Assembly: GCF_056712565.1 (NCBI RefSeq)
Contig: NZ_CM160072.1
Direction: 5' to 3' (one strand)
DNA: 64,000 nucleotides
Every line of letters begins with the position of its first letter. The stretch's first letter is position 1. Under the pieces are notes generated by a model. It was not told where the DNA came from, made no database searches, and saw only the letters and a list, made by a program, of their open reading frames with translations. The translations under genes were made by a program, and so were the position numbers. Positions 1,641-40,442 of this stretch are shown here, piece by piece.

Positions 1641-3593
<1,953 letters not shown>

Positions 3594-26469: not shown

Positions 26470-27138
26470 CTTTACTTACTCCATGCTAAGGAAATAAAAC
26501 TCCAACATTGTTGTCGGGAGTGAAACCTTATGAAAAAGCAGTCATTACTGAAAAGTAGTCAGCGAATAGCAGAATGGCTGCAGATGTATCATAAATTCGT
26601 GCACCGGGTAATACTTTGCTGCTTTTAATCGGTTTTTAATGCATTTTTTGATTGTATATCTTAAAGTTATGTAATGCATGACGTTACAAGGAACACCCTC
26701 TGATGAGTTTAGTTACCGCTGATAAGATCTCTTATTCTGTTGATGATTTATTAAAAATAAAATCATTAATTTGGCTGCGGCCATTTTAAATTGTCAATAC
26801 AGATAAAAACTAAGTGTTGACGCAGAATGGTGGTATCCATTAAATTTATTTAGTGCTGATTTAATACATTTGCTGAACGTATAATTCATGCTGATATTAA
26901 AAGAAAACCGTCATTCACTAAATAACTTGTTCGGCAAGGAAATCAGAGAGTAACGGATGATTCGTTACAACGGGGAAAGGCAGTAAATATTCACGTGGTG
27001 AATTTGTTATCAACTTGAAAACTCATTTTACTGGGTTCCTTCTGATCATGTGAGTGAACGCAGTGATTAATGATTAACGTTAAGTGCTAACCAGAGCGCT
27101 TTTTATGAAGTTAAATTAATAATATCCATTATTTATGA

Positions 27139-28812
27139 ATGAGGAAGCCTGTTTATTATATGGAAATACTTTTAACAATTTTAATTCTTACGTTGGTAGT
27201 ATCATTAACCAGCGTGCTTACACGTCTGTCTCCTGTCCAGATACCACTTCCTTTAATCCAGATTGCCGCTGGCGCAGTACTGGCCCAGCCTATATTTGGT
27301 CTGCATGTGGAATTCAATCCTGAACTTTTTCTCTTATTGTTTATACCACCCCTGTTGTTTGCTGAAAGTTCAAAAATACAACCTAAAGAATTGATCAAGC
27401 ACAGCCGGGAAATTATCAGCCTGGCACTTGTGTTGGTACTAATCACTATTTTTTGTGTCGGCTATGTGATTCATTTACTCTTACCGAATGTGCCGCTCAT
27501 CGCTGCTTTCGCATTAGCCGCCGTGTTGTCGCCTACCGATGCCGTGGCGTTGCTGGGGATTGTCGGGAAAGGGCGTATCAGCAAAAACATCCAGGAAGTG
27601 CTCGAAGGCGAAGCGTTGATGAATGATGCTTCCGGCCTGGTGGCGTTGAAATTTGCTGTTGCAGTGACGATGGGAACGATGGAATTCAGCGTTCATGGCG
27701 CAACCATTGCGTTTTTTGTCGTTGCGTTGGGCGGTATTGCCGTGGGGATCGCTGTTACCTGGTTATATGGTAAAGGGCTGCTGTTGATCAGCCGATATGC
27801 TCACGATGAACCTTCCATTCAGATTGTATTGATGCTTCTGTTGCCGTTTATTGTTTATCTGGTTGCGGAACATTTTGGCTTATCTGGCATTCTTGCCGCT
27901 GTCGCCGCGGGGTTAACAACCAGTCGCATTGGTGTAGTCCACCACGCGCCTATTCGCCTGAGAATTAAAGCTAAAAGTAGCTGGTCGATGCTTGAATATG
28001 TCTTTAACGGCATGGTGTTTCTGATTTTAGGCTTACAACTGCCGGGCATTATTTCGGAATCACTGATCCGTGCAGAAAACGATCCACTGGTGGACACCGG
28101 ATCGCTGCTCCTTGATGTCATTTGGATCTACCTGGCGTTAATGGTTGTGCGCCTGGGCTGGCTTTGGCTGATGCGTCTGTATAGCCGTAAACGACCCGGC
28201 AAACATCCGATGCTGTTTGCTGGATATAAAACGCGTCATATGCTGCTGGCGACCTTTGCGGGGGTGCGCGGAGCTATCACGCTTGCGGGGGTGCTTTCTA
28301 TCCCGTTATTGCTGCCGGATGGCACACCTTTTCCCGGGCGTTACTTGCTGGTATTTCTCGCCACAGGTGTGATCCTCTTTTCGCTGGTTTGCGGCATTAT
28401 TATTCTGCCGTTATTACTGGGGAAAAATGTGGGGATTTTCAGCGATAACCGACAAAAAGAAGAGGAAGCTGCCGATCTGTTTATGGCTAAAATGGCCATA
28501 CTGAGTGTGCAAAAGACCGAGCAACGTTTGCTGCGCGCCAGAACAGAAAACCTCGATAACGAGTTGATTATGGAAACGGGGGCCAGAGTTATCGGTTATA
28601 TGCGACATAGTGAAGAGGATATGTCGCCTAATGATAATTCCCTGCATATGCAGCGTGCGAAGCTGGAAAGAACATTTAATCTGGCGGCGTTAAATGCCAA
28701 ACGCGCGGCTATTTACCAGATGCGCGCAAGGCAAGAAGTCAGTGATGAAACACTGGCAAAAATAGTCAGTGAATTAGATGTGCTGGAAACGTTAATCATG
28801 GATAGCCGATAA
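27139..28812 (+). CDS. CPA1-family Na+/H+ exchanger (NhaP/NHE type)
   Basis: 557-aa ORF; membrane domain with LSPTDAVA and EGEALMNDA motifs, plus a C-terminal soluble domain. The start could be ATG 27139 or ATG 27160. Confidence 0.8.
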   Translation: MRKPVYYMEILLTILILTLVVSLTSVLTRLSPVQIPLPLIQIAAGAVLAQPIFGLHVEFNPELFLLLFIPPLLFAESSKIQPKELIKHSREIISLALVLVLITIFCVGYVIHLLLPNVPLIAAFALAAVLSPTDAVALLGIVGKGRISKNIQEVLEGEALMNDASGLVALKFAVAVTMGTMEFSVHGATIAFFVVALGGIAVGIAVTWLYGKGLLLISRYAHDEPSIQIVLMLLLPFIVYLVAEHFGLSGILAAVAAGLTTSRIGVVHHAPIRLRIKAKSSWSMLEYVFNGMVFLILGLQLPGIISESLIRAENDPLVDTGSLLLDVIWIYLALMVVRLGWLWLMRLYSRKRPGKHPMLFAGYKTRHMLLATFAGVRGAITLAGVLSIPLLLPDGTPFPGRYLLVFLATGVILFSLVCGIIILPLLLGKNVGIFSDNRQKEEEAADLFMAKMAILSVQKTEQRLLRARTENLDNELIMETGARVIGYMRHSEEDMSPNDNSLHMQRAKLERTFNLAALNAKRAAIYQMRARQEVSDETLAKIVSELDVLETLIMDSR

Positions 28813-35663: not shown

Positions 35664-36898
<1,235 letters not shown>

Positions 36899-37517
36899 AA
36901 CTCGCCCTTTGTCATAGACGTGCTGCGTATTGTTCAGATAATGAGAATCCATTTGTATCATGAAGCACGGTTGTTTTGCGGTAGGTTAAGATCAAAATTG
37001 CGCTGATTAATCCTGGTTATCGGGAGATGCTCGGTGATAAAAAGCGAATTATCTCTCGCCGTAAACAAACTATCGCATGAATATTATCACTATAATGAAT
37101 TTGTTATTTGGCCTTTACGAGTCAGGATAATAGATAGCTGGGCGCGTTTTTTTATGTTAACAAGTTAAAACCATCAGATTTTATTGAATAAATATTGATT
37201 GTGTGATTCCCGCACTCTGCGGGAAGAGATATTATTTAATTATAAATTAAATGAATGAGATTTCTGTTTTTCATTAAGTATTTCTAACAACTTAATGTAG
37301 ATATTTTAAATGTCTCCAGGCTATTTCACCAGGTTATCATTTGATGCTAACCTTCTGACACATGCAGTGGAGTTGTTGTGCAGCAGGAGTATGCTGATAT
37401 GAAAGTGAATGCTAAGGATAATTTATTCGCTTAATCTATTAATTTGCTGGAAATATTTAAGGAATGAATGCCTTGAATAAACCATCATGATTTTTAGACA
37501 GTGGATGTGGAGGAAAT

Positions 37518-38243
37518 ATGTTGCCAGGATGCTGCAAAAATGGAATTGTTATCAGTAAAATACCTGTTATGCAAGCAGGGTTAAAAGAGGTCATGAGGAC
37601 TCACTTCCCTGAATATGAAATAATATCCAGCGCCTCTGCGGAGGACCTTACCTTATTACAATTACGTCGTTCCGGATTAGTCATTGCTGATTTGGCCGGT
37701 GAAAGTGAAGATCCACGTTCCGTTTGTGAGCATTATTACTCTTTAATCTCACAATATCGGGAAATTCACTGGGTTTTCATGGTGTCACGCTCCTGGTATT
37801 CCCAGGCAGTAGAATTGCTCATGTGCCCTACGGCGACGTTATTGTCTGATGTTGAACCCATTGAGAATCTGGTCAAGACCGTACGTTCCGGCAATACGCA
37901 CTCAGAGCGTATCAGCGCCATGCTGACCTCTCCGGCAATGACTGAAACTCATGATTTTAGCTATCGCTCCGTCATTCTCACTCTTTCAGAGCGCAAGGTA
38001 CTGCGGCTATTAGGTAAAGGATGGGGCATCAACCAGATAGCTTCATTGCTTAAGAAAAGTAATAAAACTATTAGCGCCCAAAAAAACAGTGCGATGCGTC
38101 GACTGGCAATTCACAGCAACGCTGAAATGTATGCATGGATAAATAGCGCGCAGGGTGCAAGAGAACTTAACTTGCCTTCTGTTTATGGAGATGCCGCAGA
38201 ATGGAACACAGCCGAATTAAGAAGAGAAATGTCGCACTCATAG
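37518..38243 (+). CDS. yjjQ: LuxR/FixJ-type transcriptional regulator YjjQ
   Basis: 241-aa ORF with C-terminal LuxR HTH; long AT-rich leader upstream. Confidence 0.9.
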
Positions 38244-38878
38244 AAAAATGCGTCATGAGTCGTATCGGTATTGAGAGTTTATTCAGAAAGTTTGCAGGTA
38301 ACCCTTATAAGCTCCATACCTATACCAGTCAGGAGTCATTTCAGGATGCCATGTCGCGGATCTCGTTTGCAGCGGTCATTTTTTCTTTTTCTGCCATGAG
38401 AAGTGCGCGCAGAGAGGGATTATCCTGCCTGACTGAACTGGCGATTAAGTTTCCGCGTACCCGGCGTTTAGTTATTGCGGATGATGATATTGAAGCTCGG
38501 CTGATTGGTTCATTGTCGCCATCACCGCTGGACGGTGTATTAAGTAAAGCGTCAACGCTGGAGATTTTTCATCAGGAACTCTTTTTGTCATTAAATGGTG
38601 TACGTCAGGCGACCGATCGACTGAACAATCAGTGGTACATTAACCAAAGCCGGACGTTAAGCCCGACGGAGAGAGAAATATTGCGCTTTATGTCGCGTGG
38701 CTACTCAATGACACAAATTGCCGAGCAGCTTAAACGCAATATTAAAACGATCCGTGCACATAAATTTAATGTGATGTCGAAACTGGGCGTCAGTTCTGAT
38801 GCAGGGTTGTTGGAGGCCGCAGATATTCTGTTATGTATGCGGCATTGCGAAACAAGTAATGTGTTGCATCCTTATTAA
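38201..38878 (+). CDS. bglJ: LuxR-type transcriptional activator BglJ
   Basis: 225-aa ORF overlapping the yjjQ 3-prime end, LuxR HTH at the C-terminus. Confidence 0.9.
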
Positions 38879-39844: not shown

Positions 39845-40081
39845 ATGTTGCAACGTACGCTGGGCAGTGGCTGGGGAGTGTTGCTGCCGGGATTGCTGAT
39901 TGCAGGGCTGATGTATGCGGATTTATCGCCGGATCAATGGCGGATTGTCATTCTGATGGGATTGGTATTGACGCCGGTGATGCTGTATCACAAACAGTTA
40001 CGGCATTACGTTTTGCTACCATCGTGCCTGGCGCTTATTGCTGGCATCATGCTGATGATAATGAATTTGAATCAGGGGTGA
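39845..40081 (+). CDS. yjjZ: DUF1435 small inner-membrane protein YjjZ
   Basis: ORF 39734..40081; start set at MLQRTLGSGWGVLLPG (78 aa); two predicted TM helices. Confidence 0.8.
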   Translation: MLQRTLGSGWGVLLPGLLIAGLMYADLSPDQWRIVILMGLVLTPVMLYHKQLRHYVLLPSCLALIAGIMLMIMNLNQG

Positions 40082-40119
40082 TAAAACAGTGACGAGACAA
40101 GAAAAGAAGTAAAGATAAT

Positions 40120-40206
40120 TGGTGCGAGGGGGGGGACTTGAACCCCCACGTCCGTAAGGACACTAACACCTGAAGCTAGCGCGTCTACCAATTCCGCCAC
40201 CTTCGC
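40120..40206 (-). tRNA. leuV: tRNA-Leu (CAG anticodon), 87 nt with encoded CCA
   Basis: Reverse complement reads GCGAAGGTGGCGGAATTGGTAGACGCGCTAGCTTCAGGTGTTAGTGTCCTTACGGACGTGGGGGTTCAAGTCCCCCCCCTCGCACCA; type II tRNA with long variable arm. Confidence 0.95.
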
Positions 40207-40240
40207 ACAGTCATCTTACTTTTTTTGATATCGCCTCGTT

Positions 40241-40327
40241 TGGTGCGAGGGGGGGGACTTGAACCCCCACGTCCGTAAGAACACTAACACCTGAAGCTAG
40301 CGCGTCTACCAATTCCGCCACCTTCGC
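40241..40327 (-). tRNA. leuP: tRNA-Leu (CAG), variant copy with one substitution in the variable arm
   Basis: Identical to the flanking copies except GTGTTCTTACGGAC instead of GTGTCCTTACGGAC (tRNA sense). Confidence 0.93.
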
Positions 40328-40355
40328 CCAGTGCGAGCAATATCAACGTGGTTTT

Positions 40356-40442
40356 TGGTGCGAGGGGGGGGACTTGAACCCCCACGTCCGTAAGGACACT
40401 AACACCTGAAGCTAGCGCGTCTACCAATTCCGCCACCTTCGC
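40356..40442 (-). tRNA. leuQ: tRNA-Leu (CAG)
   Basis: Third tandem copy, identical to the copy at 40120-40206. Confidence 0.95.

Follow-up and report, generated by a model that had tools for sequence, protein, structure and literature searches.

The question raised by this locus is whether the long, AT-rich DNA that separates yjjP from yjjQ in an Escherichia coli strain, represented here by a 64-kb stretch (the window), is the same silenced control region as the one described for E. coli K-12. A preliminary description of the sequence had presented it as an AT-rich leader of about 550 bp upstream of yjjQ-bglJ and a likely target of H-NS silencing. Our analysis identifies it as an already known feature, the divergent regulatory spacer between yjjP and yjjQ of E. 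coli; this strain's copy is ordinary and well conserved, and we consider it highly probable that it works as published for K-12. The features of the locus are summarized in Table 1.

The naming of the flanking genes, yjjP on one side and yjjQ-bglJ on the other, was upheld, as Pfam domains and RefSeq annotation agree on it. The RefSeq gene names come from NZ_CP031215 (ST80-type), whose sequence matches 36800-37700 at 100% identity. The gene order yjjA-dnaC-dnaT-yjjB-yjjP <> yjjQ-bglJ-fhuF is the same as in K-12. The genes yjjB and yjjP are probably part of one operon, and the 43-nt overlap of yjjQ and bglJ is as expected of an operon. When 36800-37700 was used as a megablast query against 5426 complete E. 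coli genomes, matches were obtained in 5424, and in 5398 genomes a single place annotated with yjjP/yjjQ covered at least 80% of the query. A contiguous match was absent in about 26 of the 5424. K-12-type genomes were ~96.8% identical to the query. In one mouse-gut isolate of the K-12 lineage, E. coli O16:H48 PG20180171, yjjP (positions 2329-3099 of the extracted locus, L001) carries an internal stop and is listed by RefSeq as a pseudogene, unlike the window strain, where yjjP is intact.

Table 1. Features of the yjjP-yjjQ locus (positions refer to the window; G+C as a fraction)
Feature	Position	Strand	Size	Description
yjjB	35664-36137	-	157 aa	ThrE_2 domain; overlaps yjjP end
yjjP	36128-36898	-	256 aa	ThrE-family exporter subunit; Pfam ThrE, E 6e-69; reads away from spacer
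Small ORF	36884-37006	+	40 aa	Overlaps yjjP start region
yjjP-yjjQ divergent intergenic regulatory spacer	36899-37517		619 bp	G+C 0.346; more likely limits, from RefSeq yjjP start
Interval of the preliminary description	36962-37517		556 bp	G+C 0.340; spacer limits under the longest yjjP ORF
yjjP-proximal block	36899-37010			Identity 100% to K-12, 87% to E. albertii
Conserved block GGTTAAGATCAAAATTGCGCTGAT	36984-37007			yjjP-proximal
Centre	37011-37270			Identity 91.5% to K-12, 52% to E. albertii
Small ORF	37034-37168	+	44 aa	Within hypervariable centre
Inverted repeat TTCCCGCA-CTC-TGCGGGAA	37207-37225			G+C-rich, perfect 8-bp arms, within AT-rich centre
Sigma-70-like match	37246-37274	-		ATGAAA, 17-nt spacer, TTTAAT; weak, consensus match only
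yjjQ-proximal block	37271-37517			Identity 97.6% to K-12, 85% to E. albertii
Conserved block TAAGTATTTCTAACAACTTAATGTAGATATTTTAAATGT (TAAGTATTTCTAACAAC..TAGATATTTTAAATGT)	37275-37313			Upstream of predicted yjjQ promoter
Marbox GCATCAAATGATAAC	37333-37347	-		Exact match to the MarA-bound site of ETEC H10407
Predicted sigma-70 promoter of yjjQ	37394-37422	+		CTGATA, 17-nt spacer, GATAAT; consensus scan
yjjQ	37518-38243	+	241 aa	LuxR-type regulator; Pfam GerE/LuxR helix-turn-helix
bglJ	38201-38878	+	225 aa	LuxR-type regulator; Pfam GerE/LuxR helix-turn-helix

Concerning the extent of the spacer, the left edge of the interval first proposed depends on which start is assigned to yjjP. Position 36962 results from the longest yjjP ORF (277 aa). 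RefSeq places the start at 36898, at a downstream ATG that the gene calls also use in E. albertii (yielding 256 aa) and in Salmonella (258 aa); both species show 1-nt indels that interrupt the 63-nt upstream extension of yjjP when the sequences are aligned. Based on these starts and indels, the spacer more likely comprises 36899-37517 than 36962-37517. The figure for the intergenic region in the K-12 literature, which we take to be 555 bp, would match the longer yjjP ORF.

The unusual base composition that had been reported was reproduced in full. The G+C content at 36962-37517 is 0.340 compared to 0.511 across the window, a value reached or undercut by just 0.74% of the 556-bp windows in the stretch. 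TpA steps are doubled in the spacer (9.2 vs 4.4 per 100 bp for the window), and the G+C minimum of 0.29 in 200-bp windows lies at 37100-37299. The two AT-rich runs quoted previously, TTTATTGAATAAATATTGATT and AATTATAAATTAAATGAATGAG, are both present inside the spacer, beginning at 37180 and 37238, respectively. Nearby intergenic regions mostly measure 34-250 bp, and the yjjP-yjjQ spacer is long and AT-rich by comparison. It is not unique, as several other spacers of the window are similarly AT-rich. A second such intergenic region of 690 bp (G+C 0.336), mapped via the annotation of NZ_CP031215, is found at ~26470-27159, flanked by genes for a Na+/H+ antiporter and a TRAP-transporter substrate-binding protein. 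The lowest 556-bp G+C of the window (0.311) starts at 26633 in this region, which is, by composition, a candidate for H-NS binding too. All that a repeat search yielded were short matches in two copies, as AT-rich DNA typically shows, and these were taken as chance. Similarly, a terminator-like match on the minus strand (37060-37043) was single and weak, did not exceed chance expectation, and was rejected.

The regulatory claim of the preliminary description, repression of yjjQ-bglJ by H-NS and its activation by LeuO in K-12, goes back to Stratmann, Madhusudan & Schnetz (2008, J Bacteriol 190:926), whose conclusions are stated in later papers from the same laboratory (PMC5025477, PMC3950696). 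According to these papers, the repression by H-NS is dominant and yjjQ-bglJ stays off under laboratory conditions. In Table 1 of PMC3946193 (Shimada et al.), the yjjP<>yjjQ spacer is marked 'HNS', that is, as an H-NS genomic-SELEX site, and is also listed with RpoD holoenzyme sites. It is established that H-NS recognises AT-rich DNA by its composition and shape and not by a strict motif (PMC3946193). A scan of the spacer with the published H-NS 10-mer TCGATAAATT gave 2 matches at ≤2 mismatches. At ≤3 mismatches there were 15 matches vs 10.2 ± 3.0 in composition-matched shuffles (~1.6 sd above), which ranked the spacer second of 229 tiles by count; the 10-mer shows no clear enrichment in the spacer beyond what its AT content brings.

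Alignment with the K-12-like spacer extended over the whole length, with 95.6% identity, 27 substitutions, and one 1-nt indel. The spacers measure 619 bp here and 618 bp in K-12, with G+C contents of 0.346 and 0.345, respectively. The window and K-12 hence share the locus, flanks, length, and G+C, and their promoter-proximal blocks and yjjQ hexamers are identical or nearly so. An orthologous spacer with these properties is consistent with the K-12 silencing architecture, as had been proposed; H-NS occupancy and LeuO control in this strain would follow from orthology and base composition.

The differences are not evenly distributed. Across five E. coli strains, 37000-37250 holds 33 of the 46 variable columns of 36800-37700. 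Compared to K-12, 22 of 260 positions of the centre differ by substitutions or indels, and sites footprinted there may therefore differ in this strain. The variable inverted repeat at 37207-37225 is among these differences: the window and O157:H7 carry it, and it is degraded in K-12-type strains, M23917, and W409. Despite this turnover, the G+C content of the centre remains low, 0.331 in the window and 0.31-0.33 within Escherichia. Fast divergence with retained AT-richness fits a role that depends on composition and not on sequence, and the centre likely acts as the loading platform or nucleation zone for H-NS. Relaxed constraint together with AT-biased mutation would explain the fast evolution of the centre equally well. 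The Salmonella spacer is less AT-rich in its centre, with a G+C content of 0.418, so the picture of the centre as a platform may be specific to Escherichia.

Two conserved blocks stand out beside the centre. The block at 37275-37313 is near-invariant in Escherichia and partly retained in Salmonella, Citrobacter, and Klebsiella, and is a candidate regulator site as judged by its conservation. The block at 36984-37007 does not differ between E. coli and E. albertii, and Salmonella matches it at 19 of 24 positions; it might be part of the yjjP promoter or a regulator site. The yjjP-proximal 70-110 bp of the spacer can be aligned to C. rodentium, too.

For yjjQ, our independent consensus scan located at 37394-37422 the same hexamers (CTGATA-17-GATAAT) that are given as the best promoter match for yjjQ-bglJ in PMC3946193 (Table 1). 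They lie 96-124 bp upstream of the ATG and are invariant in five E. coli strains and E. albertii. Escherichia, Salmonella, and C. rodentium retain the -10 element GGATAAT, which reads GGATGAT in K. michiganensis. This is presumably the active yjjQ promoter. The best match for yjjP in the same published table, ATGAAA-17-TTTAAT, is found ~350 bp from the yjjP start. In ETEC H10407, a MarA ChIP-seq peak was found in the yjjP<>yjjQ spacer, which was also bound in vitro, and the marbox was given as gcatcaaatgataac (PMC5684230 Table 1, Sharma et al.). The corresponding site of the window does not vary among five E. coli strains, and E. albertii departs from it at two positions.

Taken as a whole, regulation at the spacer would most likely proceed as follows. 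H-NS would load cooperatively on the AT-rich DNA, chiefly in the centre, and the resulting filament or bridge would hold two weak sigma-70 promoters off, one reading rightward into yjjQ-bglJ and one leftward into yjjP-yjjB. LeuO, once made, would bind several sites in the spacer and remodel the H-NS complex, leading to partial de-repression of yjjQ-bglJ. MarA may provide an extra, uncharacterised input via the marbox at 37333-37347, and IS insertions could bypass silencing.

The exact conservation of the marbox, the near-neutral pace of change in the centre, the 10-mer count that does not clearly rise above composition expectation, and the several other spacers of the window with similar AT-richness would also suit a simpler explanation. 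The region would then be an ordinary divergent promoter region, AT-rich by weak constraint and AT-biased mutation, with expression set by specific regulators such as MarA/SoxS/Rob and H-NS of minor influence. We regard this as improbable. As far as stated in the K-12 sources cited above, H-NS repression of the operon is dominant and H-NS binds in the spacer in SELEX; the spacer of the window is nearly the same DNA with equal AT content, and H-NS reads composition and shape more than a strict motif (PMC3946193). Silencing by H-NS as in K-12 is thus preferred.

YjjQ orthologues with 62-85% identity were found in E. albertii, Citrobacter, Salmonella, Klebsiella michiganensis, and relatives; the comparison across genera comprised four loci found by exact-protein look-up. 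The yjjP-yjjQ spacer measures 626 bp in E. albertii and 704 bp in Salmonella. In C. rodentium (L004, 1154-3238) and K. michiganensis (L006, 1146-3222), genes for an FAD-dependent monooxygenase and an AraC-family regulator lie between yjjP and yjjQ, and 262-278 bp are left upstream of yjjQ. These inserted genes have a G+C content of ~0.55 and are absent from Escherichia and Salmonella. Directly upstream of yjjQ (260-700 bp), the G+C content is 0.33-0.37 in E. albertii, Salmonella, C. rodentium, and K. michiganensis. Low G+C at this position in all genera compared indicates that the AT-rich promoter region travels with yjjQ-bglJ and is old. The G+C content of yjjQ-bglJ itself is 0.44-0.48 across genera, lower than that of the flanking genes.

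The two additional genes in C. rodentium and K. michiganensis, together with the poor conservation of the E. coli spacer centre, could mean that the spacer is a decayed remnant of genes lost between yjjP and yjjQ and owes its length and composition to pseudogene decay, not to regulation. Neither tblastn nor blastn revealed a trace of monooxygenase or AraC-type genes in the Escherichia or Salmonella spacers. The tblastn hits of the four inserted proteins in E. coli, E. albertii, and Salmonella were noise (E ≥0.85 over 6-35 aa), and DNA similarity was confined to the yjjP-proximal 50-110 bp. As the inserted genes also differ in G+C from the spacer centre (0.55 vs 0.33), we consider such an origin very unlikely and retain the reading as an old regulatory spacer.

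The term 'leader' from the preliminary description had to be given up in favour of a divergent promoter and regulatory spacer. The predicted yjjQ promoter is located ~95 bp from the start codon, and its use would give a yjjQ 5' leader of ~90 nt, so that the 550 bp would mostly be upstream regulatory DNA. A true long leader, in which yjjQ transcription would begin close to yjjP and be governed by attenuation or an RNA structure, is scarcely credible: the weak promoter-like matches at 36915-36961 (plus strand) and the G+C-rich hairpin at 37207-37225 speak for it, but the hairpin is strain-variable and not followed by a T-tract, a permissive Rfam search of 36700-37700 (E up to 1) matched no family, the hexamers that are kept from genus to genus sit at 37394-37422, and just ~270 bp precede yjjQ in Citrobacter and Klebsiella.

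Natural isolates carry IS events at the regulatory spacer. In E. coli W409, a chicken isolate, an IS1 element is inserted at the equivalent of ~36959-36971 of the window, 60-70 bp upstream of the yjjP start. In E. coli PS3Tanimalfeces2, IS1 replaces 36858-38433, so that the start of yjjP, the entire spacer, yjjQ, and the first half of bglJ are missing; at least this natural isolate can thus do without the locus. During evolution in the mouse gut, adaptive IS insertions were selected in the yjjP-yjjQ spacer, and in the tested clone yjjP expression was increased 2-fold under aerobic conditions (PMC5094792, Barroso-Batista/Sousa et al.). The IS1 insertion of W409 resembles these adaptive insertions.

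A more far-reaching interpretation, which we put forward as doubtful speculation, would describe 37011-37270 as a fast-evolving platform with conserved composition, on which strain-specific alleles (e.g., the inverted repeat found here and in O157, not in K-12) set how tightly H-NS silences yjjP-yjjB and yjjQ-bglJ. On this view, the IS1 insertion and deletion found in the wild (W409, PS3Tanimalfeces2) would correspond to what was selected as adaptive IS insertions in the mouse gut.

Among known systems, the regulatory region of the bgl operon is also an AT-rich silenced promoter region, where upstream IS insertions relieve silencing and LeuO and BglJ-RcsB counteract H-NS (PMC2646131, PMC9678765). 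It differs from the yjjP-yjjQ spacer in its locus and in that its silencing additionally uses a downstream H-NS site inside bglG; the IS effect at yjjP is modest (the 2-fold rise in expression, PMC5094792). The leuO promoter region, AT-rich like the yjjQ spacer, is silenced by H-NS/StpA and activated by BglJ-RcsB, and leuO forms the other half of a proposed LeuO-BglJ double-positive feedback loop (PMC5025477). The leuO region differs in being LeuO-autoregulated and bound by BglJ-RcsB, for which no site is reported in the yjjQ spacer.

The locus is a textbook-style case of H-NS silencing and LeuO anti-silencing that feeds the BglJ-RcsB and YjjQ regulons, and this copy has little importance beyond its correct annotation. 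What the analysis adds is a map of which parts of the spacer are conserved and which vary, the finding that the MarA site is conserved exactly, and the IS1 events in natural isolates that echo the gut-evolution insertions. As a minor observation on the same part of the window, three tandem tRNA-Leu genes lie on the minus strand at 40072-40436, downstream of yjjZ (annotation of the identical genome), and the ORFs called over them, with their repeated 'MAELVDALASGVSVLTDVGVQVPPLAP' translation, are spurious.
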